Shown here piece after piece: positions 16,551 to 51,047 of a stretch of 64,000 nt of DNA. Each line of letters opens with the position of its first letter. Positions within the stretch are counted from its first letter, which is position 1. A program made the position numbers and the translations under genes. The stretch is from an uncultured Chloroflexia bacterium (GTDB lineage: Bacteria > Chloroflexota > Limnocylindria > Limnocylindrales > CSP1-4), in the NCBI GenBank assembly GCA_963778645.1, contig CAVZVH010000001.1:67697-131696 (forward strand), given 5' to 3'. Below the pieces are notes generated by a model. That model saw only the letters and a program-made list of their open reading frames with translations. It did no database searches and was not told the origin of the DNA.

Positions 16551-17459
16551 CTAGACGCCCTCTGCGCCGGCCAGCGCCGCCCCGATCCCTCCGGCCAGCG
16601 GGCCGAGCTGCGCCAGCACGATCTCGATCCGCTCCGGCGGGAGCATCCGCGCATGCTCCATGACGTTGGCTCGCAGCGGCTCCAGGATGATGTTGCCAGC
16701 CGCGGCCATGCCGCCCCCGACGACCACCCGATCGGGGGCAAGGACGTTGACGATGTTGGCGATCGCGATCCCCAGGGCGCGGGTCGCCTGGTCCACGGCC
16801 GCGATGCAGCGCTCGTCGCCGGCCACAGCGCCCGCAAAGACTTCCTCCACCGTGGCCTTACCGGCCGCCGTCGTGATGGCCTTGGCCTGGGCCAGGGCTT
16901 CGGTGCAGCCACGATTGCCGCAGCCGCACATCGGCCCATCCTCGAGCACCGTCTGATGGCCGATCTCCCCAGCGGTGCCGGTGCCCAGGTGGAGCATGCC
17001 GTCGATGATCAGCCCACCGCCGATGCCCGTACCGAGCGTCACGAGCGCCATCGTCCGGGCGCCGCGGCCGGCGCCCATCCGCGACTCCGCGAGCGTGTGG
17101 GCTCGCGCGTCGTTGATGAACACGACCGGTCGGCCGAGGCCGTCCTCGAGGCGTGCCTTGAAGGGATAGCCGGTCCATGGTCCCGGGAAGTTGGGAAAGA
17201 GGCGGATCACGCCAGACTCCCGATCGAACAGGCCGGGTACGCCGATGCCGATCGTGGCGATGGGGCCGTGGGCCGCCACCGCCGCCAGCCCGGCCTCGAC
17301 CATGACCGCGACGACCCCATCGGGCCCGCGCTCGGCGTAGGTCGGCACGGTGTCGCGGGCCAGCAACACGGGCTCCTCGCCGCGGTCCGACCGCTCCAGG
17401 ACGGCCACCTTCAGGTTCGTCCCGCCGAGGTCCAGGCCCAGGTGCCGGCTCGCAGTCAC
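16551..17459 (-). CDS. ROK family sugar kinase
   Basis: GLDLGGTN, INDARA, LGTGIGGG, GEIGH and CGCGNRGCTE Zn motif; no HTH. Confidence 0.92.
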   Translation of the reverse strand: MTASRHLGLDLGGTNLKVAVLERSDRGEEPVLLARDTVPTYAERGPDGVVAVMVEAGLAAVAAHGPIATIGIGVPGLFDRESGVIRLFPNFPGPWTGYPFKARLEDGLGRPVVFINDARAHTLAESRMGAGRGARTMALVTLGTGIGGGLIIDGMLHLGTGTAGEIGHQTVLEDGPMCGCGNRGCTEALAQAKAITTAAGKATVEEVFAGAVAGDERCIAAVDQATRALGIAIANIVNVLAPDRVVVGGGMAAAGNIILEPLRANVMEHARMLPPERIEIVLAQLGPLAGGIGAALAGAEGV

Positions 17460-18193
17460 GACATCTCCGCGTGGTCGCCGCGCTGGAGCACGGCCTCGAA
17501 CTCGTAGCGTTCGGCGGCATAGAGGGTCTCGGTGTGTTCGATGGGGATGCCGTCCTGGTCGTCGATGGTCCGTCGCTCGCTGAGGACGACCCCGTCGGGA
17601 TCGAGGCCCAGCAGGCGTCGTTCGATGTCGGTCGCGAGCCGCGCGGAGACCCGTGCCTGGGCTCGGGTCGGGATGCGCCCGAGTCGCTCGAAGGCGTCGT
17701 GGAGCGAACCGCCGGCCAGGTCGTCATCGAGGATGCCGGCGCACGTCGGCGGGGCGACGACGCGCTCGATGGCCATGGGCAGGTCGTCGGCGAGGCGGAG
17801 TCGTTCGACGACGATGGCCCGACTGCCCACCGGCAGGTGGAGCGCGGCGCGGTCCTCGGGGCTCGGTTCGATCCAGCCCGTGTGGAGCATCCGCGACGAG
17901 GCCCGTCGACCCCGCCGACGCATGCTCTCGGTGAACGAGAGCGGCGATCCGAGGAGTCGCGCCACCACGCGCGGAGCCGTGAACGTGCCCTCGCCTCGAC
18001 GCCGCACGAGCAACCGCTCGTTGGCCAACAGCTGGACCGCCTGTCGGACCGTCATCCGGCTCACACCGAAGCGCTCGCAGAGCTCGGCTTCGGACGGCAG
18101 CCGATCGCCCGGTCGCGACGCCGCGACGAGGCGACGAAGGTAGTCGGCGATCTCCAGGTATCGCGGGGTCGTGGCGGCGGTCATCGTGTCCAT
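17456..18193 (-). CDS. GntR family transcriptional regulator, HutC/UTRA subfamily
   Basis: RLPSEAELCERFGVSRMTVRQA wHTH, RRGEGTF and a C-terminal UTRA domain. Confidence 0.93.
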   Translation of the reverse strand: MDTMTAATTPRYLEIADYLRRLVAASRPGDRLPSEAELCERFGVSRMTVRQAVQLLANERLLVRRRGEGTFTAPRVVARLLGSPLSFTESMRRRGRRASSRMLHTGWIEPSPEDRAALHLPVGSRAIVVERLRLADDLPMAIERVVAPPTCAGILDDDLAGGSLHDAFERLGRIPTRAQARVSARLATDIERRLLGLDPDGVVLSERRTIDDQDGIPIEHTETLYAAERYEFEAVLQRGDHAEMS

Positions 18194-18194
18194 G

Positions 18195-18224
18195 TTGACG
18201 GAGTCTTCGGGGCGTGCTTAGGAT
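18195..18224 (+). promoter_or_regulatory. Sigma70-type promoter for the SIS operon
   Basis: TTGACG (18195-18200), 18-nt spacer, TAGGAT (18219-18224); the operator lies at the predicted +1. Confidence 0.65.
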
Positions 18225-18230
18225 GGCACA

Positions 18231-18246
18231 CCTGTCTAGACATCTT
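18231..18246. promoter_or_regulatory. GntR/HutC-type operator (CCTGTCTAGACATCTT) between the divergent gntR and SIS genes
   Basis: Palindrome TGTCTAGACA at 18233-18242; these 16 bp are identical to 52290-52305. Confidence 0.75.
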
Positions 18247-18290: not shown

Positions 18291-19088
18291 TTGCCCATCG
18301 CCGGCGCGTGGCTCTCCGAGGCCCGAGCAGTCCTCGATCGGATCGAAGCCACCCAGATGCCCGCCATCGCGGAGACCGTGAGCCTCTGCGCACGAGCCAT
18401 CGGCGACGGTGGCCTCGTCCACCTCTTCGGGACAGGCCACTCGCGGATCCCGCTCGAGGAGATGTTCCCGCGGTACGGGTCCTACCCCGGATTCCATCCG
18501 ATCGCCGAGCTCTCGATGACGTTCCACACCCAGGTCGTCGGTGCGAACGGCCAGCGTCAGGCGATGTTCATCGAGCGAACCGAGGGCCTCGCCGAAGTGA
18601 TCCTGGCCAACTTCCAGTTCGGGCCGAGCGACGTGATGATGGTCTTCTCGGCGTCCGGGCTGACCGCCGTCCCGATCGAGATGGCGATGGGCGCGCGAGC
18701 CCGCGGCCTGGTGGTCGTGGCCGTCACCTCGGTCGCCCAGTCGATGGCCGGTGTGCCGGAGCACCCGACCGGCAGCCGCCTGCTGGACCAAGCGGACATC
18801 GTCATCGACCTGTGCACGCCGGCCGGCGACGCGCTTGTGCGCCTGGACGGCCTGGACACGCCGATCGGCCCGGGCTCCACGGTCGCCAACGCCGCGATCG
18901 TCAACGAGATCAAGGTGGGGACCGCGGCGATCCTCCTGCAGCGGGGAGCGCTGCCGCCGGTCCTCACGAGCGCCGCCGTGGTCGGACCGGAGCGCTCGAT
19001 CGAACTGTTCGAGGCGGCGTACCGGGAACACGCTCGCCGGGTCGCTCTGGCGCTCGCCGGGGCCGTGGCGCCAGCTGACGAGGCCTAG
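18291..19088 (+). CDS. SIS domain sugar isomerase-like protein (UPF0309 type)
   Basis: HLFGTGHS, FSASG, VAVTS, IDLCTPAGDA and GPGSTV match the SIS fold; TTG start preceded by GGAGG. Confidence 0.8.
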   Translation: MPIAGAWLSEARAVLDRIEATQMPAIAETVSLCARAIGDGGLVHLFGTGHSRIPLEEMFPRYGSYPGFHPIAELSMTFHTQVVGANGQRQAMFIERTEGLAEVILANFQFGPSDVMMVFSASGLTAVPIEMAMGARARGLVVVAVTSVAQSMAGVPEHPTGSRLLDQADIVIDLCTPAGDALVRLDGLDTPIGPGSTVANAAIVNEIKVGTAAILLQRGALPPVLTSAAVVGPERSIELFEAAYREHARRVALALAGAVAPADEA

Positions 19089-19163
19089 GCTCGTATCATC
19101 ATCGATCATCGATGACAGGCACGATCCGCAAGCGGACGTTCGGGACGCGATGGAGGACTCGCC

Positions 19164-20948
19164 GTGGCCGTGACAGAGGAGATCCTCGGCCAGTTCCTTG
19201 GAGACGACACGTTTCCGGTCGACTGGGACTCGGAGGTCGAGAAGGACTTCTTCTGGGTGTACGACGACCTGCACATCCCGCACCCGGTCAGCCCGATGTT
19301 CTTCGACATCGGTGGTTGGTGGCTCAGCTGCGACCACATGTTCCGCCGCTTCGGGACACCGTTCGCCGTCGACTGGCTGGCCAAGAACGTCAATGGCTAC
19401 GTGTACACGACCGCCATCCCGGCCGATCCGGACCTCCGGATCGAGGGAACCGAGTACAGCTCGCGCTACAGCGCGCGGGTGCCGCGCGACGCCACCTTCG
19501 CCGCCACGATGGGGGCGTATCTCGACGTGGTCCTGCCCGTCTACGGCCGGGACTTCGCCGACTGGTGGCGGGACCGCCTGCGGCCGGAGATGGAGCGCAA
19601 TTTCGCCTTCCTGGAGGCGCGCCTCGACGCCGCCGACGGCATGAGCCTGGCCGACGTGGCCTGCCTGCTCGAGGACGCTATCGACATCCACGATCGTCAC
19701 TGGAAGATCCACTGGATGCTGAACTTCGCCCAGCTGTCCGCGACGCTCCACCTGCGCGCCGTCATGGAGAAGATCCGCGGCACGGTCGACGAGGCGCTGC
19801 TGGGCCGCCTCCAGAACTCGGCATCGGACCGCAACTGGGACTCGATCGAGGCGCTGTGGCGGATGAAGAACGAGGTTCGCGATGATCACGAGCTGCGGGC
19901 GGCGTTCGCATCCGATGCCGCCGCCGAGATCGCCGCGTCGCTCCATGCGAGCGAGCGGGGCCGGCGGTTCATCGCCGAGGCGATCGGGCCGTATCAGCGC
20001 GAATTCGGATGGCATGCGGTCTGGAGCCACGAGTTCATCTTCCCGACGGTCCGCGAGCAGATGGAGCCGGTCCTCGAGCTCATCCGCGGGTACCTGGCCA
20101 GCGACTACGACTTTCCGAGCGCGATCGAGGCGATGCGGATCGACATCGCGGCCGCGTCCGAGGAGATCCTCGACGGGCTGACCGGCGATGCGCTCGAGGA
20201 GATGCGCGCGGCCAACGCCGTCAATCGCAGGATGGCGCCGCTGACGCCCGACCACCACTTCTACATCGACCAGGGCGCCAACGCCCACGTCCGCCTCGTC
20301 CTGCTCGAGGTCGGCCGCAAGCTCGTGGATGCCGGGCGCCTCGATGCGCCCGACGACGTGATGTTCCTTCGCTACAACGAGCTTCGGGGCCTGATCGGCA
20401 GCGCCGAATCGATCGACGCGCGGGCATTCGTCGCCAGCCGCCGCCTCGAGCGCCAGGCCGCCGCTCGCCGACATCCGCGCGACTGGGTCGGCACGGTCAC
20501 CCCATCGCAGCTCGCCTTCCCATACCTCGTCAATTGGGGGTACCCGGATCGCTTCCATCAGACGCAATCGGAGGATGTGCGCCTCATCACGGGGATCGGT
20601 GCGTCCCCGGGCATCGTCGAAGGCATCGCCCGGGTCGTGCGGACCGTCGACGAGTTCGACGAGGTCCGCGACGGCGACATCCTCGTGTGCCAGATGACCA
20701 ACCCGGCCTGGGTGGTCCTGTTCACCAAGATCGCCGGCCTGGTGACCGACACCGGGGGGACGACCTCGCATCCCGCCGTCCTCGCCCGTGAGTTCGGGAT
20801 CCCGGCGGTCATCGGCACATCCGTGGCGACCCAGCGGATCGCCACCGGCGACCGGTTGAGGATCGATGGCGCGGCAGGGCGGGTGGAGGTCATCGGCGAG
20901 GCGCCGGCCGGATCGACGGTCGTGTCGGCGACGGCGATCGGTCGCTGA
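19164..20948 (+). CDS. PEP-utilizing enzyme: substrate-binding domain plus phospho-His swivel, no ATP-grasp (phenylphosphate synthase alpha-like)
   Basis: C-terminal GIGASPGIVEGIARV...TDTGGTTSHPAVLAREFGIPAV phosphohistidine signature. N-terminal EKDFFWVYDDLHIPHP, VNGYVY and DHHFYID resemble PpsA-type proteins (recalled, not searched). Confidence 0.8.
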   Translation: MAVTEEILGQFLGDDTFPVDWDSEVEKDFFWVYDDLHIPHPVSPMFFDIGGWWLSCDHMFRRFGTPFAVDWLAKNVNGYVYTTAIPADPDLRIEGTEYSSRYSARVPRDATFAATMGAYLDVVLPVYGRDFADWWRDRLRPEMERNFAFLEARLDAADGMSLADVACLLEDAIDIHDRHWKIHWMLNFAQLSATLHLRAVMEKIRGTVDEALLGRLQNSASDRNWDSIEALWRMKNEVRDDHELRAAFASDAAAEIAASLHASERGRRFIAEAIGPYQREFGWHAVWSHEFIFPTVREQMEPVLELIRGYLASDYDFPSAIEAMRIDIAAASEEILDGLTGDALEEMRAANAVNRRMAPLTPDHHFYIDQGANAHVRLVLLEVGRKLVDAGRLDAPDDVMFLRYNELRGLIGSAESIDARAFVASRRLERQAAARRHPRDWVGTVTPSQLAFPYLVNWGYPDRFHQTQSEDVRLITGIGASPGIVEGIARVVRTVDEFDEVRDGDILVCQMTNPAWVVLFTKIAGLVTDTGGTTSHPAVLAREFGIPAVIGTSVATQRIATGDRLRIDGAAGRVEVIGEAPAGSTVVSATAIGR

Positions 20949-21006
20949 TATGCGCAGCCGCATCGTCCTGGTCGGCGTCGTCGATCAAGGGCCCTAGACC
21001 CGGCCG

Positions 21007-21879
21007 ATGCGAGCCTTCGCCTACGAGCGTCCGACCCGCCTTGAGGACGCGCTCGAACTGCTCGCCGAGCACGGCCCGGAGGCGAGCCTGCTTGCCGGTG
21101 GGACCGACCTGATCATCCGGCTTCGCGACGGGACGATCCGGCCGAGCGTGGTGGTCGATCTCAAGCGCGTCGCGGAGCTCGACGCGGAGATCGGCGACGC
21201 CGACGGCCATCTGCGGATCGGGGCTCGGACCGTGATGACCGACATCGCCGCGGACGAGCGCATCCGGCGGGACTACCCGGCCCTGGCCGAGGCGGCGTCG
21301 GTCGTGGGATCTGCCCAGATCCGGAACCGCGCGACGCTCGCCGGCAACATCTGCAATGCCTCCCCCGCGGCCGACACGGTTCCCGCGCTCCTGGTCTACG
21401 GCGCCCGGGTCGTCGCGACCGGCCCGGCGGGGACGCGGACGATCCCGATCGACGACGTCTTCGTCCGATCCGGTGTGACCACGCTCGGCCGCCGTGAGCT
21501 CCTTGTGGCCATCGAGCTGCCCGCCCCGACCGACCCACGGGGATCCGTCCATGTCCGACGTACCCGGCGTCGCGGTCACGACCTCGCCTCGGTCACGTTG
21601 ACCTGCGCCGTCCTGGCCGATGGGGTGACCACCTTGGCCTATGGCAGCCTCGGGCCCCGGCCGTTGCTGGTGGTCGACGAGACGGGTCTGCTCGCCGATC
21701 CAGCGGCTCCGGATCTCGCCAAGATGGCGCGGCTCGAAACGCTTTTCGTCGACGCCAGCCCGTCCGCGCGATCGATGCGGGCGAGCCCCGACTACCGCCT
21801 CGCGATGCTCCACGTCCTCGGGCTCCGGGCGGTCGGCATCGCCATCGAGCGACTCGCCCAGGCGACGGCCCCGCGATGA
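21007..21879 (+). CDS. Molybdenum hydroxylase FAD-binding subunit (CoxM/XdhB-like)
   Basis: LLAGGTDL, IRNRATLAGNICNASPAAD and RTRRRGHDLA. Confidence 0.92.
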   Translation: MRAFAYERPTRLEDALELLAEHGPEASLLAGGTDLIIRLRDGTIRPSVVVDLKRVAELDAEIGDADGHLRIGARTVMTDIAADERIRRDYPALAEAASVVGSAQIRNRATLAGNICNASPAADTVPALLVYGARVVATGPAGTRTIPIDDVFVRSGVTTLGRRELLVAIELPAPTDPRGSVHVRRTRRRGHDLASVTLTCAVLADGVTTLAYGSLGPRPLLVVDETGLLADPAAPDLAKMARLETLFVDASPSARSMRASPDYRLAMLHVLGLRAVGIAIERLAQATAPR

Positions 21880-22352
21880 CGACCACTCGCAGGATCGAAA
21901 CGACCGTGAACGGACAACGTCGCGCGATCGACGTCATCGCGCATCACACGCTTCTCGAGGTCCTCCGTGACGACCTCGGCCTGACCGGGACGAAGGAGTG
22001 CTGCCTGGTCGGCGAGTGCGGCGCCTGTACCGTGCTCGTCGATGGGGTCAGCGTGGACTCGTGCCTCATGCTCGCGGTCGAGGCCGACGGCGCGTCGGTC
22101 ACCACGGTCGAGGGTCTCGCCGGCGAGGACGGCCTGCACCCGCTTCAGCAGGCATTCCTCCGGACGGGTGCCGTCCAGTGCGGATTCTGCATCCCCGGTC
22201 AGCTCGTCTCGGCCCACGCCATGCTCGCGCTGATCCCACACCCGACCCGATCCGAGGTCGAGGAGGGCCTCGCCGGCAACCTGTGCCGATGCGCCGGGTA
22301 CGAGCAGATCATCGAAGCCGTCATGTCGGCGGCGGGAGACGAGGAGTCGTGA
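21876..22352 (+). CDS. Molybdenum hydroxylase 2Fe-2S subunit (CoxS-like)
   Basis: GTKECCLVGECGACTV, QCGFCIPG and GNLCRCAGY. Confidence 0.95.
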   Translation: MTTTRRIETTVNGQRRAIDVIAHHTLLEVLRDDLGLTGTKECCLVGECGACTVLVDGVSVDSCLMLAVEADGASVTTVEGLAGEDGLHPLQQAFLRTGAVQCGFCIPGQLVSAHAMLALIPHPTRSEVEEGLAGNLCRCAGYEQIIEAVMSAAGDEES

Positions 22353-24604
22353 GCGACCGAGTGGTCGGCTCGTCCCCGGCTCGCGTGGGCGGGCTCGATC
22401 GGGTCACGGGCCGGCAGGCGTATGTCGCCGATCTGCGACTCGAGGGGGCGCTCCAGGCCAAGCTGGTGAGCCTCGATGTCGCGCGGGCCACGGTCACGCG
22501 GATCGACACGCGTGCCGCGCTCGAGGTCCCGGGCGTCCGCCTGATCCTCACGGCGGCCGACCTGCCCCAGCCGGTCCCGCGCTTCGGTCCGCAGTGGCAG
22601 GACCGGCCGGTCCTCGCGGCCGGCGAGACCCACTACCACGGTGAGCCGATCGCGGCGATCGCAGCGGACACGGTCGACGCGGCGGAGGAGGCGGCTCGTC
22701 GGGTCCGGATCGAGTACGAGGAACTACCGGCGGTCGTCACGATCGCGGCGGCCCTCGCCCCGGACGCGCCGCTCGTCCAGGACCCCGCACTGCGACCGGG
22801 CGATCCGCTGGCGACCACGAACGTCCTTCGCGAGCACCACTACGGCTGGGGCGATGTGGAGGCCGCATCGGCCGACGTCGTGGTCGAGGGGACCTACCGA
22901 TTCCCGATGGTGACCCAGTTCGCGATCGAGCCACACGCCTTCATGGCCGCTCCCGACGGCGACGGGATCGCCATCTGGAGCTCGATCCAGCACCCCAACT
23001 GGCTGCAGCGGGTCATCGCCGGCGTGCTCCATCTGCCCCTCGCCAAGGTCCGGGTCTTCGCACCCGACCCGGGTGGCGGGTTCGGCGGCAAGCAGCACGC
23101 CAAGTACGAGCCGCTCGTCGCGTTCCTGGCCCTGCGGACGGGACGCCCGGTCCGCCTTGTCCTGACGCTCGAGGAGACCTTCCAGGCCGTCCGCCGGGGC
23201 GCATCGGAGATCCGCGTTCGCTCCGGTTTCCGGACGGACGGCAGCCTCGCGTTCCGCGACGTCGTCGCCGACTACCTCATCGGCGCGTACGCCGACATCG
23301 CCGACCGCACCGTCGGCAAGGGCAGCTATACCTCGAATGGGCCGTATCGCACGCCCGCCGTGCGGATCGTGGCGCGCAGCGTCCTCTCCCACACGACGCC
23401 TTCCACCGCCTTCCGTGGCTTCGGGAATCCCCAACAGATCTGGGCGGTCGAATTGAACATGGACGAGGCGGCGCTGGCGCTCGGCATCGATCCGCTCGAT
23501 CTGCGCCTGCGCAACCTGGCCCGCCGCGGGGAAGACTTCATCCCCGGCGATACCCCGGTGGACGGCGATTGGGCGGCGACCGTCGTTCGGGCGGCCGAGC
23601 TGATCGGGTGGGGGAGCCCGTCGGCTCCTGGTCGCGGTCGTGGCCTGGCGGTCGGCCTGAAGTCCGGGCCGACGACGGGGCTGTCGTATTCGACCGTCCG
23701 CCTGCTCGCGGACGGAAGCGTGATCGTGCACGCTGGCACGTCGGACATGGGCCAGGGCGCGCGGACGATCTTCGCCCAGATCGCCGCCGACGAGCTCGGT
23801 GCCCCGATCGACTGGGTGACGATCGTGATGGGCGACACGGCCGTGGTCCCGTATGACCAGCAGACGTCGGCGAGTCGGTCGTCCGTCCTCATGGGCAATT
23901 CGGTCCTTGATGCCTGCCGCCAGGTCCAGGGGAAGATCCAGGCGATGGCCGCCCGGCTGGAGTCGGTCGATGCGTCCGAGATCGTCGTGGATCGCGGCGA
24001 GGTCCGGATCGGGGAGCGGGTGATGCCGATCCGGGACGTCCTGATCCGCGGCCTCGGTCGGCTGGGCGGGGAGGTCATCGGGATCGGGGAGATGCGCAAG
24101 GAGGCCGACCCGGACCATCCGCTCGGCGGGACCGCCGCCTTCTTCGAGTTCAATTGCACCGCCGTCGAGGTGGAGGTCGATCGGGCGACGGGCGACATCG
24201 TCATCGTCCGGCACGTCACCGTCTCGGACGTCGGCAAGGCCCTCAACCCGACCCAGGTCCGCGGCCAGGACGAGGGCGCCGCCGTCATGGGGCTCGGGCA
24301 CACGCTGATGGAGCACTACATCTACGACGACGACGGCCGGATCCGCAACCTCGGCGCGATCGACTACCGGATCCCGACGAGCATGGACCTGCCGTTGCGC
24401 ATGGAGAGCGACATCATCGAGAACGAGGACGGCCCCGGCCCGTACGGCTCGAAAGGGATGAGCGAGGGCGCGCTCCTGTGCGTCGCTCCGGCCGTGGCCG
24501 CGGCCGTCCGCGATGCCACGGGGGTGACGATCCGCGAGTTGCCCCTGACCCCCGAGCGCGTCTGGCGAGCGCTCCGCGAGTCGGGCGCGGGTGACGACGC
24601 ATGA
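22349..24604 (+). CDS. Molybdenum hydroxylase molybdopterin-binding large subunit (xanthine dehydrogenase family)
   Basis: DRVTG...Y, GGGFGGK, AFRGFGNPQ, DMGQG, SASRS and YGSKGMSEG. Start GTG 22349. Confidence 0.92.
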   Translation: MSDRVVGSSPARVGGLDRVTGRQAYVADLRLEGALQAKLVSLDVARATVTRIDTRAALEVPGVRLILTAADLPQPVPRFGPQWQDRPVLAAGETHYHGEPIAAIAADTVDAAEEAARRVRIEYEELPAVVTIAAALAPDAPLVQDPALRPGDPLATTNVLREHHYGWGDVEAASADVVVEGTYRFPMVTQFAIEPHAFMAAPDGDGIAIWSSIQHPNWLQRVIAGVLHLPLAKVRVFAPDPGGGFGGKQHAKYEPLVAFLALRTGRPVRLVLTLEETFQAVRRGASEIRVRSGFRTDGSLAFRDVVADYLIGAYADIADRTVGKGSYTSNGPYRTPAVRIVARSVLSHTTPSTAFRGFGNPQQIWAVELNMDEAALALGIDPLDLRLRNLARRGEDFIPGDTPVDGDWAATVVRAAELIGWGSPSAPGRGRGLAVGLKSGPTTGLSYSTVRLLADGSVIVHAGTSDMGQGARTIFAQIAADELGAPIDWVTIVMGDTAVVPYDQQTSASRSSVLMGNSVLDACRQVQGKIQAMAARLESVDASEIVVDRGEVRIGERVMPIRDVLIRGLGRLGGEVIGIGEMRKEADPDHPLGGTAAFFEFNCTAVEVEVDRATGDIVIVRHVTVSDVGKALNPTQVRGQDEGAAVMGLGHTLMEHYIYDDDGRIRNLGAIDYRIPTSMDLPLRMESDIIENEDGPGPYGSKGMSEGALLCVAPAVAAAVRDATGVTIRELPLTPERVWRALRESGAGDDA

Positions 24605-26731
24605 CGCTGACCCTCGCGCTCGGCGCGCCCTGGTCCGGCACGCTCGACGAGGCCAGGGCGTTGGTCGGCGGCAAGGCGGCGAATCTCGGGGTCATGGCGC
24701 GCGACCTCGGCCTGCCGGTTCCGCCCGGGTTCGTCATCACGACCGACGCCTGCCGGGCTGTGCTGGCCGGCGGCTGGCCGGCCCACCTCGACGAAGAGAT
24801 CCGGGACCGGATGGCCGGCCTCGAGGCGGCCGTCGGTCGCCGGTTCGGGGATGCGCGGGATCCGTTGCTGGTCAGCGTCCGATCCGGAGCCCCAGTGTCG
24901 ATGCCCGGGATGATGGACACGATCCTCGACCTGGGCCTCAACGACGCGACGACCCGTGGCCTCGCGCAGGCCTCCGGCAGCGAGGTCTTCGCTCGCAGCT
25001 GTCGCCAGCGATTCGAGGCGAGTTTCCGTTCGATCGTCGGGGTGGCCGAGGTGCCGGCCGATCCCTGGGCTCAGCTCCGCCTGGCGATCGAGGCGGTCTT
25101 CCGGTCCTGGAACAGCGATCGCGCCCGAGCGTACCGCCGAGGAGGAGGGCATCCCGGACGACCTAGGGACGGCGGTCACGGTCCAGGCGATGGTCTTCGG
25201 CAACCGTGGCCGGAGGTCGGGCACCGGCGTCGTCTTCACGAGGAATCCCGCGACCGGTGAGCCGACCCTCTACGGCGACGTCATGTTCGACGCCCAGGGC
25301 GAGGACGTGGTCGCCGGGACGCATCCGACCGATCCGATCACGGTCCTCGACGAGCGGCTGCCGGAGGTCGCCGCCGACCTGCGGCGATACGCGGACCAGC
25401 TCGAGCGCCACTTCACCGATCTCTGCGACATCGAGTTCACGATCGAACAGGGCCGACTGTGGCTGCTCCAGGTCCGGGTCGGCAAACGGAGCCCGCAGGC
25501 GGCCCTGCGGATCGCGGTCGACATGGCCAGCGACGACACGTTCCCGCTGACCCGGGCGCACGCGGTCGAGCGTGTGGCGTCGCTGCTCGCCGATCCGCCG
25601 TCGGTCGCGACGACCCGCGCCAGCTCCGTCCTGCCGCTCACGACCGGATTGCCGGCCTCGCCCGGGACCGCGAGCGGGCCGATCGTCACGAGCCCCGAGG
25701 CGGCGCAGGAAGCGGCCGAGGGTGGACAGGCGGCGATCCTCGTGCGAGCCGAGACCTCGCCCGACGACGTTCACGGGATGGCTCGCGCGGCTGGGATCCT
25801 GACCTCGCGGGGCGGCCTCGCCAGCCACGCGGCGGTCGTCGCCCGCGGGTGGGGGATCCCGGCCGTCGTCGGGGCGGCCGCGATGACCGTGGGTGACGGC
25901 CGGGTCGTCTTTGGCGGACGGAGCCTCGAGGCCGGAACGGTCATCACGATCGACGGGAGCTCCGGCGAGGTCTTCGAGGGCACGATCCCCGGCACGACCG
26001 AGGTCGTGCCCGAGGCGCGGACGCTGCTCGGCTGGGCGCACGAGCTCGGGATCCTCGTCGCCGACGAAGGGAGCGTCGCCGACCCGTCGAGCCTGTCCGG
26101 TCCGGTGAGCAAGATCACGCCCGATGGCTGCCTCCAGGCCCTGGACATCAAGGGCTTGGCGCCGATCGAGGGCGTCGCGGATGCGGTGCGTTCGACCCCG
26201 GAAACCGTTGGCCCGATCCTCGACCAGCTGGTCGTCGACGGCCTGGTGGAGACCGTCACGGGCGCCTATCGACTCACCGAGCTCGGCACGGACCGGGCGA
26301 GGGGCCTGCGCCGCACCGAACAGGACGCGTGGGGGATCGCCGAGGCCATCGTGGCACTCGACGCGTTCCTGGGGCTCGACCATGCGATGAAGGAGATCGT
26401 GACCGCCTGGCAGCTCCGTGACGATGCGGACGGCCAAGTCATCAACGATCACTCGGACTCGGTCTATGACCAGAGGGTGCTGGACCACCTCGCCGCGATG
26501 CACGCCGATGCGGCGGCCTGGTTCACACGACCGGAGCAGGGCTGTCCGCGACTGGCGGCCTATCGGATCCGCCTCGGCCGGGCGCTCGAGATGGCCCGCG
26601 CCGGCGACCAGCGGTTCGTGGCTTCACCGCGCGTCGACAGCTACCACGGGATCTGGTTCGAGCTCCACGAGGACCTGATCCGTCTCGCCGGGCGGAGCCG
26701 AGAGGAAGAGGTGGCCGCCGGCCGGGCATAG
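24601..26731 (+). CDS. Truncated pyruvate phosphate dikinase-like protein (ATP-grasp plus His swivel) fused to a wHTH/helical C-terminal domain; apparent frameshift near 25140
   Basis: GGKAANL, VSVRSGAPVSMPGMMDTIL, QAMVFGN, QGEDVVAG, DIEFTIE and GGLASHAAVVARGWG. The pyruvate-binding barrel is absent, replaced by about 200 aa ending DSYHGIWFELHEDL. Confidence 0.85.
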
Positions 26732-26776
26732 CAGGTCGCCGGGCGGTCCCACGGGCCCTAGTGGCGGGCTCAGTCC

Positions 26777-27236
26777 TCAGCTCACCGCTTTCTTCACGAG
26801 CGTCACGATCCTTGCCTCGTCGGCGGCGGTCAACTTCGTGAGAGCGAAGGACGTCGGCCACATGGTGCCTTCGTCGAGGTTTGCGTCGTCGTTGAAGCCG
26901 AACGTCGCATACCGCGACTTGAACTTGTCCGCGCTTGTGAAGAAGCAGACGATCTTGCCGTCCTTGGCATATCCGGGCATCCCGTACCAGGTCTTCGGCG
27001 AGAGGGCTGGCGCGTTGGCTTTGATGAGGGCATGGAGCCGCTCGGCCATGACCCGATCCGATTCTCGGCATCTCGGCGATCTTCTCGAGCACGTCGCGTT
27101 CTCCGTCCGCCGCGCCCGCCCGCGGGCCCCGGCGCGCGGCCGCCTTCTGCTCCTTGGCGCGCTCCTTGATCGCGGCTCGTTCCTCGTCGGTGAAGATCGC
27201 GGTGGTGGTCTTGGCGGACTTCTTCGTGTCGTTCAT
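26777..27236 (-). CDS. DUF1801/YdhG-like protein (apparent frameshift near 27060)
   Basis: [16 protein letters not shown]-terminus joins MAERLHALI...[20 protein letters not shown]...YATFGF in the next frame. Confidence 0.8.
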
Positions 27237-27421
27237 TGGAGGTTTCCTCCTCGGCGAGTCTTGATCTGTCGCTCCTGATGGTAGGGAGCCGCCGCCGCGG
27301 CGGCTTCTTCAAAACTGCTCGATCGTGACCGGCGCGAGATGCCCGGATGCTCGGGGTCGAAGGCATACCGACGATCTACGATCGACGCACCACCGGATCT
27401 CGACGAGGAGGTGCACGCGCG

Positions 27422-28669
27422 ATGTTCACGGCCACCAAGGACCTGATGCTCCCGGCGACCGTTACTGGTTCGTGGCCGCGGCCACGCTGGTACGACGGCG
27501 GCCTCTGGGGCCGCCCGCTCGACACGGCGCTGCTCGACGTCCGCTTCCGTGAGCAGTTCCTCGACGCGCACGCCACCGTGATCGCCGAGCAGGAGCGCGC
27601 GGGGCTCGACATCCTCACGAATGGCGACTACCACCTCGACGAGGACTTCGCCGGCCGCTCGTGGCACCACTATCCGTTGCAGCGCTGGAAGGGGTTCGAG
27701 CACGAGGAACTCCAGTACGAAGGCTCGCGCGACCGCCTGCTCGAGTTCCCGCCAGGCACCCTGATGAACGAGATCGAGACGACGTGGCGGTGGCCGCGCG
27801 TCGTCGGCAAGGTCGAACACGACCCTCGCAATCCGCTCGAGTACGCCAAGCTCTGGCGGATCGCCCAGGCACGCGCGGGCTCGGGCAAGCCGGTCAAGTT
27901 CGGAACCTGCTCGTCGCAAGTGCTGTCGATCTTCCTCGATAGCCATACGGCCGAATACGACCTGGAGGACAAGAAGCAGCTGATCTGGGACATGGCCGGC
28001 GCGATGAACATCGAGCTTCGTCAGCTCGCGGCCGCCGGGGCCAAGGTCATCCAGATCGAGGAGCCGACGATCCATTTCGTGGCGTGCTTCTATCCCGACC
28101 AGACGGAGTTGCTCGACTTCCTCGTCGACGCGTTCAACCACGAGGTGGACGGCCTCGACGATGTCGAGCTGTGGATCCACACCTGCTGGGGCAACCCGAA
28201 CATGCAGAAGGTCTACACCGGCGAGTCGTACGAGAAGTCGATCGACATCTACCTGGAGCGCCTCAAGGGCGACGTCTGGACCATCGAGGCGACCGAGAAC
28301 GAGCTGGCCGAGATCGACCTGTTCAAACCGTATGCCGGCCGGCTGCAGAAGAAGGTCGCCGTCGGCGTTGTCAACCACCGCACGCTTCAGGCCGACATGG
28401 CGCCGGTCGTCGCCGGGCGGGTGCGGCGCGCATTGGAGGTGATCCCGGCGGACAAGCTGATCCTCTCCACCGATTGCGGGTTCGGCCGGCAGGGGTTCAA
28501 CCGGACGGTCGCGTTCTACAAGACGACGGCGATCGCGCAGGCGCGAAATATCGTCCTGAAGGAGCTCGGGCTGGAGGAGCGCTACGTGCCGGCGGCCGAC
28601 CCGTCCCTGCAGACCGACGTGCTCCCGGACCGCGAGCCTCTGACGCACCTGCCGTCACCCTGGAAGTAG
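27422..28669 (+). CDS. Cobalamin-independent methionine synthase II family (MetE C-terminal-like) Zn enzyme
   Basis: TVTGSWPRP, LDILTNGD, IQIEEP, HTCWGN (His/Cys Zn ligands) and STDCGFG; GAGGAGG RBS before ATG 27422. Confidence 0.85.
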   Translation: MFTATKDLMLPATVTGSWPRPRWYDGGLWGRPLDTALLDVRFREQFLDAHATVIAEQERAGLDILTNGDYHLDEDFAGRSWHHYPLQRWKGFEHEELQYEGSRDRLLEFPPGTLMNEIETTWRWPRVVGKVEHDPRNPLEYAKLWRIAQARAGSGKPVKFGTCSSQVLSIFLDSHTAEYDLEDKKQLIWDMAGAMNIELRQLAAAGAKVIQIEEPTIHFVACFYPDQTELLDFLVDAFNHEVDGLDDVELWIHTCWGNPNMQKVYTGESYEKSIDIYLERLKGDVWTIEATENELAEIDLFKPYAGRLQKKVAVGVVNHRTLQADMAPVVAGRVRRALEVIPADKLILSTDCGFGRQGFNRTVAFYKTTAIAQARNIVLKELGLEERYVPAADPSLQTDVLPDREPLTHLPSPWK

Positions 28670-29668: not shown

Positions 29669-30562
29669 TTAGCGGCCCTTCGCGTACCCCGTCGCGGTCA
29701 GCTTGTCCCAGAGGGTCCCGGCATTGTTGTTCTGGATGTGATCCATCATGTAGCCCTGCCCGACGTCGACCGGCCCGAAGGCGTCGTCGAACCGGACGCG
29801 CGCGATCGTCTCCTCGCGCGTCCAGCCCTTCGCGACCGCGTCTGCGACGGCGGCCTTCCACTGATGCAGGACGGACCGCTGCGTATCGACGTAGGCGATC
29901 GTCTGGACGGGACCGTGGCCCGGGATCAGGTGGTCGACGTCGAGCTGGCGGATCCGCTCGAGCGCATCCAGCCATTGGTCGACGTTCGAGGTCATCAGCC
30001 ACGTCTGGCACTCGGCGAAGATCGTGTCGCCGGTAAAGACGGCCCGCTCCTCGGGCACGTGCACCGCGAGCTGGCCGGGTGTGTGCCCCGGCGTGTGGAG
30101 CAGGTGAAAGGTGTGATCGCCGACGCGCAGCGTCAGGTCGCCCGTGAAGACCACCGTCCCCTTGTTCGGGTCCTGGTAGTAGACCTCGCGATCGGGAATC
30201 AGCGGCGCCGCCTCGGGGTCGTCGGTCGGGATCGCCTCGAGGGCATACGCGAACGGATCGAGGGCCGCATTCGGGTCCATGAAGTTGTCGTACAGCCCCT
30301 GGTGATTGACGACCGGCACGCCCTTGTACCAGTAGTTCCCGAAGATGTGATCGACGTGGTGCTCGGTGTTGATGAGGTAGCGGATCGGGCCGTGCGACTC
30401 CGCCTCCGCCCGCATCGCGACCGCCCGTGTCGGCAGCTGGGGCGTGTCGATGGCCACGACCCCATCGGCGGTCACGACGAAGCTCGGGTTGCACCCGCGG
30501 AGCTTGGTCGTCGTGTAGATGTTCGGCGTGACGCGTTCGAGGTCCAGGGTGGCAACCGCCAT
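29669..30562 (-). CDS. Metallo-beta-lactamase fold hydrolase (cyclase-like)
   Basis: IDTP, TEHHVDHIFGN, TPGHT, FTGDT and IPGHG. Confidence 0.88.
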   Translation of the reverse strand: MAVATLDLERVTPNIYTTTKLRGCNPSFVVTADGVVAIDTPQLPTRAVAMRAEAESHGPIRYLINTEHHVDHIFGNYWYKGVPVVNHQGLYDNFMDPNAALDPFAYALEAIPTDDPEAAPLIPDREVYYQDPNKGTVVFTGDLTLRVGDHTFHLLHTPGHTPGQLAVHVPEERAVFTGDTIFAECQTWLMTSNVDQWLDALERIRQLDVDHLIPGHGPVQTIAYVDTQRSVLHQWKAAVADAVAKGWTREETIARVRFDDAFGPVDVGQGYMMDHIQNNNAGTLWDKLTATGYAKGR

Positions 30563-30580: not shown

Positions 30581-31366
30581 CTACTGGGTCGCGGTGAGAC
30601 CGCCGTCGATCCCGAGGACCTGGCCGGTCACGAATGAGGCGGCGTCCGAGCACAGGAAGATGGCCGGTCCGACGAGGTCGCTGGTCTCGCCGACGCGGCC
30701 GAGCGGGATGCGGTTCACGATGCCGGCCTTGAAGGCCGGGTCCTCGAGCAGCATCGCGACCTGCGGCGTGTCGACGAACGTCGGCATGATGGCGTTGACC
30801 CGGATCCCATGCTTCGCCCATTCGGTCGCCCATTGCCGGGTGAGCGAACTGATCGCTCCCTTCGCGGCCACATACGCGGAATAGCCGGCGTTGATCCCCA
30901 GGTTCGCGCGCACCGACGAGATGTTGAGGATCCGCCCGCCGTGACCCTGCGCGATGAGCTGACGGACGACGGCCTGGGTCGGCACGACCGTGCTTCGTAC
31001 GTTGAGCTCCATGATCCAGTCCCAGTCGGATCGGGGGTAGCCCTCGGCGGGATGGAGCGCCTTGCCGGCACCGCCGCCGACCGCATTGACGAGGATGTCG
31101 ATGCGACCGAACCGATCCACGGTCTCCCGGACCATCCGATCGCCGTCGGGCTCGCTGGTCACGTCCGCGACCACCGTGACGCCCTCGGATCCGGTCGCCT
31201 CCACGCGCTGGGTCGTCGCATCCAGGGTGTCGCGGGTCCGCCCGGCCACCGCGACGCGAGCACCCGCGCCAGCGAGGGCCACGGCCATGTCGGACCCGAT
31301 GCCCCCGCCGCCACCGGCGACGATGGCGACCAGCCCGTCGAGGCTGAAGATGTCGAGTTGGCCCAA
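30581..31366 (-). CDS. SDR oxidoreductase (gluconate 5-dehydrogenase/KduD-like)
   Basis: VAGGGGGIG, YVAAKG, VNAIMPT and GQVLGIDGG; TTG start at 31366 with AGAGGAG RBS. Confidence 0.88.
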   Translation of the reverse strand: MGQLDIFSLDGLVAIVAGGGGGIGSDMAVALAGAGARVAVAGRTRDTLDATTQRVEATGSEGVTVVADVTSEPDGDRMVRETVDRFGRIDILVNAVGGGAGKALHPAEGYPRSDWDWIMELNVRSTVVPTQAVVRQLIAQGHGGRILNISSVRANLGINAGYSAYVAAKGAISSLTRQWATEWAKHGIRVNAIMPTFVDTPQVAMLLEDPAFKAGIVNRIPLGRVGETSDLVGPAIFLCSDAASFVTGQVLGIDGGLTATQ

Positions 31367-31451
31367 TCCGTGCTCCTCTGCGCCTTCATCGATTATCGAA
31401 CGTTGGGCTGGCCGATGCACGAGCACGCGGCAGGATCGGCCCGTTCGGTCG

Positions 31452-31470
31452 TACCATAGAAAACGGTTGC
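31452..31470 (+). promoter_or_regulatory. -10 box (TACCAT) followed by a LacI-type operator GAAAACGGTTGC
   Basis: TACCAT 31452-31457; 31459-31470 fits the LacI consensus GnAAnCGnTTnC. A LacI gene lies in the downstream operon. Confidence 0.6.
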
Positions 31471-31505
31471 TGTCGCGACGAACACACGAGTCCGGAGTGA
31501 GTGAG

Positions 31506-32453
31506 ATGGCGCTGAACCTGGACGGTCTGATCCCGGCCACCGTGCTCCCGATGGCGGCCGACGGCAGCATCGACGAACCGGCCCTGCGCTCGTACATCGC
31601 GTGGATCGTCGAGCAGGGGCCGGTGGCGCTGGCGATCAATGTCGACACCGGCGAAGGGCCTCATCTCACCCACGACGAGAGGGTCCGGATCCTGCAGATC
31701 GTCGACGACGTCACTGACGTTCCGATCGTCGCCGGGCTCGCCGGACCGTCGACCGATGCGGCAGTCCGCCAGGCCGCGGAGTTCAAGGCAGCCGGCGCCG
31801 ACGCGCTCCTCGTCTTCCCGATCCCGGCGTACCTGAGCGAGCCGCTCGACGTGCGGGTCCCGGTGCGCTACCACGAGGCCATCGCCGAGGTTGGCCTGCC
31901 GCTCATCCTGTTCCAACTGCAACCCGCACTCGCCGGTCTGAACTTCGAGCCCGAGACGTTGCGGGCGATGGCCGAGGTCGACGGCGTCATCGCCATCAAG
32001 GAAGCGTCGTTCGATGCTCGGCGGTTCGTCGATACCGCGAACCTCCTCGCCGAGCTGCCCCGGCCGATCACGCTGCTGACCGGCAACGACAACTTCATCC
32101 TCGAGTCGTTCATGCTCGGGGCGACCGGCGCGCTCATCGGTTTCGGCGCGGTGATGACCCGCGAGCAGGTCCAGATGATCGAAGCGTGGCAGGCCGGCCG
32201 GATCGACGAGGCCCGGGCGCTCGGCAAGCGGGTCCAGCGGCTCGCCGACGTCGTGTTCGCGAAGCCCGTCGGCGACTACCGCGTGCGCCTCAAGGAGTGC
32301 CTGCGACTGCTGGGCGTCCTCGACGCGGCCCATGTCCGGCGCCCGTTGATGCCGATCAGCGAAGACGAGCGGGCGTACCTCGTCTGGGTCCTCTCGGAAG
32401 TCGGGCTGCTGTCCGGTGCGCCCGCCGCATCCCCCGCGTTCGCGCGACCCTAA
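31506..32453 (+). CDS. DapA/NanA-like class I aldolase family protein (non-canonical active site)
   Basis: GLIPATVLP, NVDTGEG, GADALLVFP, IAIKEAS (Schiff-base Lys) and LLTGND. Confidence 0.85.
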   Translation: MALNLDGLIPATVLPMAADGSIDEPALRSYIAWIVEQGPVALAINVDTGEGPHLTHDERVRILQIVDDVTDVPIVAGLAGPSTDAAVRQAAEFKAAGADALLVFPIPAYLSEPLDVRVPVRYHEAIAEVGLPLILFQLQPALAGLNFEPETLRAMAEVDGVIAIKEASFDARRFVDTANLLAELPRPITLLTGNDNFILESFMLGATGALIGFGAVMTREQVQMIEAWQAGRIDEARALGKRVQRLADVVFAKPVGDYRVRLKECLRLLGVLDAAHVRRPLMPISEDERAYLVWVLSEVGLLSGAPAASPAFARP

Positions 32454-50132: not shown

Positions 50133-51047
50133 TCACTTGATGTATGGCCGCAGGACGTCGCGCGCGATCAGGAAGCCCTGCTTCACACGCTCGTCGGTGC
50201 CCTCGAACACGCGGTCTTCGTGCTCGATGATGATGTCGCCGTCGTAGCCGGTCCGATAGAGCGCCGAGAACAGGGCGCCCCATTCGACCTCGCCGAGACC
50301 CGGGATGCGGGGGATCTGCCAGCCGATCCCGGCCGACAGGATGCCGCGCTCGTACAACCCGTCACGGTCGATCATCAGGTCCTTGGCCTGCACGTGCAGG
50401 ATGTGCGGCCCGAACTCGCCGATGAAGCGGGGGATCTCGATCATCTGGAGGATGAGGTGGGACGGGTCGAAGTTGAGCCCGATCGTGCCGCCCCAGGTTT
50501 CGAGGATCCGGCGCCAGATGCGCGGGGTGGTGGCGAGGTTGTGGCCGCCCGGCCACTCGTCGTACGAGAACAGCATCGGGCAGTTCTCGAGGGTGATCTG
50601 GCGACCGTGATCCTGCGCGAAGGTGACGATGTCCGGCCAGACTCGGAGCGCCTCCGCCCAGTTGTCGTCCTGGTTCTTCGACCCGTCCGCGCCCATGAAC
50701 GTGTTGACGTATGAGACGCCCATCGCCTCGGCGGCTTGGATGACGCGCTTGAGGTGCCCGATGACCTCGGCCCGATGTTCCGGATCGGGGTGGAGCGGGT
50801 TCGGGTAGTAGCCCAGGCCGGAGATCGAGAGGCCCTTGGCCGTGATCGCATCGACGATCTCGGTGGCCTGACTCGCGGAGAGGTTCGCGACGTCGATGTG
50901 GGACGTGCCGGCATACCGTCGCGTCGTGCCGGTCGTGCGCGGCCAGCAGGCGATCTCGACGCTGTCGAATCCATTGGCCGCCGTCCAGTCGACGACGTCG
51001 CTGAGCGGGGTCTCGGGGAATGGGGCGGTCAGCAGGCCTAGCTTCAT
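50133..51047 (-). CDS. Sugar phosphate isomerase/epimerase (xylose-isomerase-like TIM barrel)
   Basis: VEIACWP, ITLENCP, GLNFDPSH, HVQAKD, PGLGEVEW and IIEHED. Confidence 0.88.
   Translation of the reverse strand: MKLGLLTAPFPETPLSDVVDWTAANGFDSVEIACWPRTTGTTRRYAGTSHIDVANLSASQATEIVDAITAKGLSISGLGYYPNPLHPDPEHRAEVIGHLKRVIQAAEAMGVSYVNTFMGADGSKNQDDNWAEALRVWPDIVTFAQDHGRQITLENCPMLFSYDEWPGGHNLATTPRIWRRILETWGGTIGLNFDPSHLILQMIEIPRFIGEFGPHILHVQAKDLMIDRDGLYERGILSAGIGWQIPRIPGLGEVEWGALFSALYRTGYDGDIIIEHEDRVFEGTDERVKQGFLIARDVLRPYIK

Follow-up and report, generated by a model that had tools for sequence, protein, structure and literature searches.

A conserved gene cluster of uncultured Chloroflexota pairs a putative split small-molecule dikinase with a molybdenum hydroxylase

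We analyzed a 64,000-nucleotide stretch of contig CAVZVH010000001.1 from an uncultured Chloroflexia bacterium, referred to below as the window. Its G+C content is 70%, and its closest relatives are Chloroflexota metagenome-assembled genomes (MAGs) labelled Limnocylindria/CSP1-4. The analysis concerns five genes at positions 19164-26731, which encode a 594-residue phosphoenolpyruvate (PEP)-utilizing protein, the FAD-binding, iron-sulfur (FeS) and molybdenum (Mo) subunits of an enzyme of the xanthine dehydrogenase (XDH) family, and a protein related to pyruvate phosphate dikinase (PPDK). We propose, with confidence only a little above even, that these genes form one unit in which a split ATP-dependent small-molecule dikinase and a three-subunit Mo hydroxylase break down a phenolic or hydroxylated N-heteroaromatic compound. 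The original prediction had placed the five genes in a co-oriented group of six at 18291-26731, the first being a gene of the SIS family. Pfam and NCBIfam scans of the window proteins confirmed the single orientation and the expected domains (Table 1). Reading of the sequence likewise confirmed a promoter-like site upstream from the SIS gene and three start-stop overlaps within the group: ATGA at 21876, where the ATG of the 2Fe-2S gene overlaps the stop of the FAD gene, GTGA at 22349, where the GTG of the Mo-subunit gene overlaps the stop of the 2Fe-2S gene, and ATGA at 24601, between the Mo-subunit and PPDK-like genes.

Known two-component dikinases include PpsAB of Thauera aromatica, CreHI of Corynebacterium glutamicum and HpeHI of Rhodococcus rhodochrous, and their one-chain relative is rifampin phosphotransferase (RPH). 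The three two-component enzymes have been characterized; they act through a beta-phosphoryl-histidine and release AMP and Pi (PMC12167813). The 594-residue protein of the window contains PF00391, on residues 502-572, as its sole Pfam domain and lacks PPDK_N. The swivel motif GGTTSH, kept in 72 of 75 relatives, places the putative catalytic residue, His536, about 58 residues from the C-terminal end. The NCBIfam models for RPH, PigC, RedH and PRK08296 align to residues 160-577, that is, to the C-terminal two thirds of the protein, and the best PDB matches by sequence are the RPH entries 5FBS and 5HV1. An AlphaFold2 (AF2) model built with 18 sequences (predicted local distance difference test, pLDDT, of 61) had RPH entries 5FBU, 5FBT and 5HV1 as its only strong fold matches (E ~1e-13). 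These comparisons of sequence and model indicate that the protein is built like PpsA, CreH and HpeH, the acceptor subunits of the known enzymes, with an RPH-like substrate-binding region followed by a swivel His.

The PPDK-like protein contains PPDK_N and PF00391, and the PEP/pyruvate TIM barrel PF02896 was not found in it by Pfam. As assembled, its gene lies in two frames (24601-25260 and 24956-26731). Scored separately, the two pieces reached 211 and 290 bits against NF004531/PRK05878, a model that we take to represent the mycobacterial short PPDK (Rv1127c, or VadK, in Mycobacterium tuberculosis). An intact ortholog from a related locus (L001:16156-18285), 77-78% identical to the window protein, scored 492 bits for a cut-off of 456 and was 44% identical to the 506-residue short PPDK of Diaphorobacter. 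All 48 orthologs carried the swivel motif GG[LM]ASHAAV (GGLASHAAV in 47 and GGMASHAAV in one). From its sequence, the protein is best described as a VadK-type truncated PPDK with a swivel His of its own, extended by a fused domain of about 235 residues at the C terminus. The residue located two positions before the catalytic His is Thr in the acceptor (GGTTSH) and Ala in the VadK-like protein.

The last 235 residues of the PPDK-like protein, modelled by AF2 with a pLDDT of 90, form a winged helix that leads into a helical bundle and contain the invariant motifs NDH.D..YD and SPRVD.YH..WFELHED. Analogues in the PDB were found for the winged-helix part only, and comprised Sso10a, IdeR, MntR, MarR-like proteins and O-methyltransferases. 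The best 120 matches in a large protein database were mostly fragments of the same fused protein. The tail of the L001 ortholog, about 65% identical to that of the window, matched a 206-residue protein encoded by a Diaphorobacter plasmid (41% identity, E 5e-37) and a 201-residue protein encoded by the Mycobacterium avium plasmid pP7a (38% identity, E 4e-35); the window tail matched the same two proteins at 32-34% identity (tblastn). The gene for each homologue immediately adjoins one for a short PPDK, and the group also includes a gene for a PEP-utilizing enzyme. In M. tuberculosis, the product of the gene beside vadK, Rv1126c, co-purifies with VadK, raises its solubility and is washed off only by 2 M NaCl (PMC13400623). 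Since the tail homologues adjoin short PPDKs and Rv1126c binds VadK tightly, the Limnocylindria protein resembles a VadK-type kinase joined in one chain to the protein that binds it, the likeness to Rv1126c being drawn through the plasmid-encoded homologues. A 205-residue DUF4202 protein of Thermomicrobium roseum was considered as a counterpart of the tail and rejected, the similarity not being significant.

The Mo enzyme has a complete set of domains in its three subunits, and the eight cluster Cys residues of the small subunit are present. The Mo subunit scored below every NCBIfam equivalog cut-off. In the alignment with XdhB of Rhodobacter capsulatus, QHP214 faces Gln197 and SEG705 faces Glu730, which we take to be, in the numbering of XdhB, the Gln located near the Mo=O group and the catalytic Glu, respectively. 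Judging from this alignment, the Mo active site appears intact and the hydroxylase competent. The purine-binding Glu and Arg of XDH (bovine residues 802 and 880) are replaced by Gln and Lys (GGGFGGKQ in place of the GGKE of XDH, and Lys at the position of XdhB Arg310). With both purine-binding residues replaced, and a score of 453 bits against NF043082 for a cut-off of 780, identification as XDH proper was rejected.

To assess conservation, 80 loci were fetched, each encoding a relative of the 594-residue protein at 67-88% identity; 51 had enough flanking sequence. The five core genes occurred together in all 51 loci, in three kinds of arrangement. The core was co-linear in some, divergent in others (L043-45 and L050), and had an inverted PPDK-like gene on its downstream side in a third group (L069, L075 and L080). 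Two of the latter loci, L069 and L075, belong to Actinomycetota. Because the core stays together despite changes in its arrangement, this linkage, which is far beyond chance, argues for selection over mere shared descent. We also searched 401 genomes sampled across the phylum for co-occurrence. Within the window's class, 14 genomes had both the ortholog of the PEP-utilizing protein and the PPDK tail, and the remaining genomes listed for the class had neither. In the window's own genome, whose assembly is 82% complete, the only PPDK_N proteins found were the PPDK-like protein and a housekeeping PPDK. The original prediction had staked its case on the two phosphotransferases co-occurring elsewhere and on the PEP-utilizing protein having no different ATP-grasp partner encoded outside the window, and both of these results are in its favor.

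Two further genes accompany the core in most relatives. A gene for a GntR/FCD regulator lies between the PEP-utilizer and FAD genes in 39 of the 51 loci, and, in 37, a gene for a 295-residue protein with a P-loop-like motif (GGESNHGKS) and without a Pfam family (for example L002:12498-13382) sits between the regulator gene and the FAD gene. From the Thr that the acceptor keeps two positions before its catalytic His, where the VadK-like protein has Ala, we speculate that the P-loop protein might be a regulator of the PDRP/PSRP kind. Neither gene was found in the window or in the rest of the 82% complete assembly, and both are missing from six other loci; they are therefore considered as accessory. 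Proteins of 304 and 296 residues encoded beside the PEP-utilizer in Diaphorobacter and M. avium were examined as possible equivalents of the P-loop protein and rejected, since both are DUF7065 proteins. A gene for a metallo-β-lactamase (MBL)-fold hydrolase was located next to the cluster in 33 of the 51 loci, in three different positions and at 68-94% identity, usually beside a short-chain dehydrogenase/reductase (SDR) gene in the relatives, where the SDR matches were weak.

The role of the VadK-like protein is further illuminated by operons in which another protein takes its place. The megaplasmid of T. roseum DSM 5159 (TRD_RS09580-09650) encodes an ortholog of the PEP-utilizing protein (48% identity) in an operon whose other genes include those for a GntR regulator, for the FAD, Mo and FeS subunits of an XDH-family enzyme, and for a plain 323-residue ATP-grasp-only protein of the HpeI/PpsB kind. 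The same arrangement was found in L098 and L099, from genomes of two other Chloroflexota families (G111 and G007). Thus, the slot occupied in Limnocylindria by the VadK-like protein is taken elsewhere by a canonical ATP-grasp subunit. This replacement is the best available evidence on the matter and, as a sequence comparison, supports the view that the VadK-like protein would supply the ATP-grasp function to the acceptor. The original prediction that the two partial phosphotransferases complement each other has thereby become plausible for a conserved pair, on the strength of their co-occurrence, the lack of another ATP-grasp candidate in the genome, and the replacement of the partner. The PEP-utilizing enzyme, a short PPDK, and a tail-like protein also recur together in Diaphorobacter, on the M. 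avium plasmid, and in genome G372.

We infer as follows how the phosphoryl group would flow, in which order the reactions would run, and what class of substrate would be used. The 594-residue acceptor would bind the small molecule in its RPH-like domain and carry the phosphoryl group on His536, and the VadK-type short PPDK would supply the ATP-grasp site. The PPDK-like protein might load the His of the acceptor directly, with the acceptor swivel docking on the ATP-grasp domain, or it might phosphorylate its own swivel His and then hand the group on. If the Cre, Hpe, and 3hpd systems are a guide, the phosphorylated compound, rather than the free one, would be the substrate of the Mo enzyme. The phosphate would be removed last, and the MBL-fold hydrolase is a candidate for this dephosphorylation or for another downstream reaction.

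Precedents for this order come from three systems. The enzyme acting downstream from CreHI is a P450. In the Hpe system, the carboxylase requires its substrate to be phosphorylated, and the action of a phosphatase comes later. According to the 3hpd preprint, phosphorylation by CreHI has the same role ahead of the next enzyme (bioRxiv 10.1101/2020.01.08.898148). In Ensifer adhaerens HP1, HpdA converts 3-hydroxypyridine only if orf9 and orf10 are present; these genes are annotated as encoding a PPDK and a PEP-utilizing protein, respectively, and knock-out of either one abolishes growth, an effect that the authors left unexplained (bioRxiv 10.1101/2020.01.08.898148). Because HpdA is idle without the kinase genes and the Hpe carboxylase accepts phosphorylated substrate only, phosphorylation would precede the Mo step. 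These precedents run counter to the original prediction, in which the dikinase phosphorylated the product of the Mo enzyme.

Several observations weigh against our proposal. The ATP-grasp protein of the window carries a swivel domain of its own, unlike HpeI, CreI, and PpsB, and could act in another manner. The published description of Mtb VadK is of a histidine kinase with a regulatory role, one that binds metabolic enzymes, in connection with the methylcitrate cycle; it does not present VadK as part of a small-molecule kinase (PMC13400623). In the 3hpd study, the authors did not detect a phosphorylated intermediate (bioRxiv 10.1101/2020.01.08.898148), and the likeness of Orf9 and Orf10 to the window proteins is drawn from their annotation. 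The Mo subunits of the Thermomicrobium type are only 36-37% identical to that of the window. Finally, the AF2 model of the PEP-utilizing protein is of modest quality, and the PPDK-like gene is frameshifted as assembled.

Conservation of both swivel His residues leaves room for a His-to-His relay. We advance tentatively, as a possibility of rather low probability, a specific form of this idea, in which the VadK-type PPDK and its Rv1126c-like domain would constitute the phosphodonor arm of a relay resembling that of the phosphotransferase system (PTS). The PPDK would autophosphorylate from ATP, and the group would pass from His to His to the RPH-type acceptor, which would O-phosphorylate a (hetero)aromatic compound for the Mo hydroxylase or, elsewhere, for a Rieske oxygenase. 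Were this relay to operate, hydroxylation would be coupled to ATP, and VadK, a kinase of Mtb virulence, would gain a concrete biochemical role.

The reported nature of VadK raises another alternative, in which the VadK-like protein is a regulator, that is, an ATP-sensing His kinase whose winged helix would participate in the control of transcription, of the Mo enzyme, or of the PEP-utilizing protein. The DNA-binding PDB analogues of the tail (Sso10a, IdeR, MntR, and MarR-like proteins) fit this alternative, as does the lack of a separate regulator gene in the window and in six other loci. However, the operons of the Thermomicrobium type have, in the same slot, a plain ATP-grasp subunit with neither a His domain nor a winged helix-turn-helix (wHTH), and the acceptor of the window's genome would be left without an ATP-grasp partner if the VadK-like protein served another purpose. 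Winged helices are also dimerization modules, for example in the O-methyltransferases matched by the tail. A purely regulatory role is therefore unlikely.

It could also be envisioned, as in the original prediction, that the Mo enzyme acts first and that the dikinase phosphorylates the newly introduced hydroxyl, the ROK, SIS, and DeoC proteins handling the glycone of a nucleoside or glycoside. The RPH-like proteins PigC and RedH act on oxo/enol groups, to judge from their family names, and the layout of the window offers some grounds for this order of events. The SIS gene ends only 76 bp before the PEP-utilizer gene, with no terminator-like site between the two, and the single promoter-like site upstream, TTGACG-18-TAGGAT at 18195-18224, is the sole one of its kind in 10 kb for 0.4 expected. 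A GntR/UTRA regulator and a ROK kinase are encoded divergently upstream, with a DeoC-like gene beyond. Comparison with the 80 loci does not support this layout as a functional one, since the SIS, ROK, GntR, and DeoC genes adjoin the cluster in L012 and L061 only, and in part in L044 and L067. In L012 (8791-9984) and in L061, a minus-strand gene for a 397-residue transaldolase-like protein separates the SIS gene from the PEP-utilizer gene. The window lacks this gene, which accounts for the short distance between the SIS and PEP-utilizer genes. Thus, the sugar genes are lineage-specific neighbors located outside the system, and the window locus, with its gap at 19089-19163 and without the transaldolase-like gene or the two accessory genes, is a compacted version of the cluster. 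In addition, most relatives have a dedicated GntR/FCD regulator gene within the cluster, and the inactivity of the 3hpd hydroxylase in the absence of the kinase genes is a poor fit to a kinase acting purely downstream. We consider hydroxylation as the first step to be quite unlikely, and the proposal of a nucleoside or glycoside aglycone as substrate loses its basis.

The regulatory signals upstream from the SIS gene are to be read in the same light. A perfect 10-bp palindrome, TGTCTAGACA, occupies positions 18233-18242, just 3' of the -10 element of the SIS promoter. This promoter-like site and the palindrome belong to the SIS/GntR-UTRA divergon and are no conserved part of the dikinase-Mo cluster. 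The original claim of co-regulation with the sugar genes is not borne out by conservation. The palindrome is similar to operators of the DasR/NagR type, recognized by GntR regulators of the HutC subfamily, and would suit the divergent GntR/UTRA regulator and the ROK kinase. Sequence features of the SIS/GntR/ROK side suggest an amino-sugar module without relation to the dikinase-Mo cluster.

The frameshift in the PPDK-like gene raises the issue of decay of the locus. Alignment with six relatives revealed one extra base in CCGAGGAGGAGGG, near positions 25138-25142, and a simple hidden Markov model based on the phase of G+C at third codon positions (GC3) recovered the shift at ~25118. Applied to the large contigs of the window's genome, the same approach detected 0.22-0.44 apparent frameshifts per kb, clustered in some regions. 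Long-read MAG loci gave 0.12 per kb, the remaining MAG loci from this clade gave 0.04, and four loci taken from finished genomes showed none. The full-length housekeeping PPDK gene of the same assembly (contig C20, ~68.1-70.9 kb) is likewise split over two frames. Save for the extra base, the PPDK-like gene is open throughout and has kept every conserved motif. Since the housekeeping PPDK gene is also split, the assembly is rich in apparent frameshifts, and the gene is otherwise open, the extra base is probably an assembly error, and the caveat of the original prediction that the gene might be a pseudogene most likely reflects an artefact. Additional candidate frameshifts in the window, at 50133/51044, 58427/59511/60598, and 7867/8184, were discarded because Pfam identified separate genes with long and open upstream frames. 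The remaining argument for a non-functional remnant would be that the whole assembly has lost the genes for the GntR/FCD and P-loop proteins, but six other loci show the same compact form, devoid of both accessory genes. Decay, with a genuine frameshift, is improbable.

The least probable alternative, to which we give very little credence, is a reductive enzyme similar to 4-hydroxybenzoyl-CoA reductase (4-HBCR) that removes an aryl-O-phosphate or hydroxyl, phosphorylation providing a better leaving group: phenylphosphate synthase and 4-HBCR do share the anaerobic phenol pathway and the closest solved chain to the Mo subunit is 4-HBCR alpha (306 bits, versus 242 for XDH), but identification as 4-HBCR was rejected as the 290-residue FAD subunit has no [4Fe-4S] loop and only two Cys residues (Cys116 and Cys200), the cut-offs of TIGR03194 (417 bits versus 995) and TIGR03195 (122 versus 405) were missed by far, and no carboxylase, CoA-ligase, or benzoyl-CoA reductase genes were found nearby.

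Table 1. Positions of the dikinase-Mo cluster and of neighboring features in the window.
Feature	Position	Strand	Domains or remarks
Promoter-like site and palindrome of the SIS/GntR-UTRA divergon	18195-18242	+	
GntR+UTRA regulator	17456-18193	-	Divergent from the SIS gene
SIS_2 sugar-isomerase-like gene	18291-19088	+	PF13580, NF002805
Putative acceptor (H-type) subunit of a split small-molecule dikinase, 594 aa	19164-20948	+	PF00391 only; no PPDK_N
FAD-binding medium subunit of an XDH-family Mo enzyme	21007-21879	+	PF00941, PF03450
Small subunit with two [2Fe-2S] clusters	21876-22352	+	PF00111, PF01799
Molybdopterin-binding large subunit, 751 aa	22349-24604	+	PF01315, PF02738, PF20256
Predicted VadK-type truncated PPDK, frame broken	24601-26731	+	PPDK_N and PF00391; no PF02896
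C-terminal tail of the PPDK-like protein	26021-26731	+	Winged helix and helical bundle
MBL-fold metallohydrolase	29669-30562	-	PF00753
SDR oxidoreductase, paired with the MBL gene	30581-31648	-	PF13561

On the 3' side of the PPDK-like gene, the window contains a gene for a MetE-like (Meth_synt_2) protein of 440 residues (27347-28669), which occupies the same position in 7 of the 51 loci. A 3.6-kb contig of the same assembly (C3) carries, at 168-2106, a second PPDK tail that has diverged (54% identity), with a MetE-like gene (57-75% identity) behind it, and thus mirrors positions 26021-28669 of the window. This copy probably originates from a second strain or organism within the bin.

Other genes were noted around the related clusters of other organisms. 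Genes for DUF7065 proteins of about 300 residues lie right beside the PEP-utilizer gene in Diaphorobacter (L094:8236-9150) and on the M. avium plasmid (L096:9413-10303). The Diaphorobacter module is located among Rieske dioxygenase genes, not XDH genes. The 'ppdK' gene of the Novosphingobium plasmid pNL1 was set aside since it encodes a full-length PPDK. A gene of the UPF0261 (Tm-1-like) family adjoins the cluster in T. roseum (L093:4490-6593), where a PEP-hydrolase-like gene follows it, and in both Actinomycetota loci (L069:6581-7948 and L075:7746-9083). MarK, a UPF0261 protein, is an ATP-dependent aromatic kinase (PMC12624787). By analogy, the loci bearing a UPF0261 gene may hold two different aromatic kinases.

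The gene set had been regarded as undescribed in the original prediction, which needs revision. The class of two-component dikinases is known from PpsAB, CreHI, and HpeHI, and the pairing of such enzymes with a Mo hydroxylase has been published in one genetically studied case, the degradation of 3-hydroxypyridine. The literature search retrieved nothing joining phenylphosphate synthase with the XDH family in a gene cluster. Three elements are new: the putative donor belongs to the VadK type of truncated PPDK and has a swivel domain of its own; its partner protein is fused to it; and conservation of the pairing extends widely across Limnocylindria and to some Actinomycetota. Mo hydroxylases are thought to need just water and an electron acceptor, and we know of no description of their chemistry on phosphorylated substrates. 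If the conserved and obligate pairing with an ATP-driven dikinase is real, some Mo hydroxylases act on phosphorylated substrates. VadK is needed for the virulence of M. tuberculosis, and to our knowledge no phosphoacceptor has been reported for it. By setting a close relative of VadK beside a small-molecule acceptor subunit, the cluster provides a direct hypothesis for the function of this kinase family.

In comparison to known systems, the window shares with PpsAB, CreHI, and HpeHI an RPH-like acceptor domain with a C-terminal swivel His, the need for ATP-grasp activity from a second protein, and a catabolic context. The partners differ. The ATP-grasp subunit of the three known dikinases is an ATP-grasp-only protein of ~320-360 residues devoid of a swivel, whereas that of the window is derived from PPDK, has its own conserved swivel His, and is fused to a wHTH-helical domain. 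The associated enzyme is a Mo hydroxylase instead of a P450 or a biotin- or UbiD-type carboxylase, and the cluster lacks a gene for a HAD-type phosphatase such as HpeD. The 3hpd cluster resembles the window in having a Mo hydroxylase beside PEP-utilizing and PPDK-like genes, and it includes a GntR regulator gene. HpdA, however, is CODH-like and has four components, with an SRPBCC protein as a separate subunit, and it is linked to genes of the maleamate pathway, whereas the enzyme of the window has three subunits; no SRPBCC, 2,5-dihydroxypyridine dioxygenase, or maleamate genes were found among the neighbors scanned, from 13 to 32 kb of the window.

VadK autophosphorylates on His422 when ATP and Mg are present (PMC13400623). 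Like the window protein, it is a truncated PPDK with an ATP-grasp domain and a swivel His and without the PEP/pyruvate barrel, and Rv1126c matches the position of the domain fused in the window protein (a likeness drawn via the M. avium and Diaphorobacter homologues, at 38-41% identity). The mycobacterial kinase differs in that its partner is encoded by a separate gene and that it is described with no small-molecule acceptor subunit, whereas the window gene is part of a Mo-hydroxylase/PEP-utilizer operon. The cluster of T. roseum, from the same wider lineage, resembles the window by its PEP-utilizing enzyme and its XDH-family FAD, Mo, and FeS genes. It differs by the 323-residue ATP-grasp-only subunit, the DUF4202 protein, and additional genes for cyclase, FAH, ABM, UPF0261 (MarK-like), and PEP-hydrolase-like proteins and an ABC transporter. 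Since T. roseum is a cultured organism carrying an orthologous operon, the proposed coupling of a split dikinase to a Mo hydroxylase is open to bench work.

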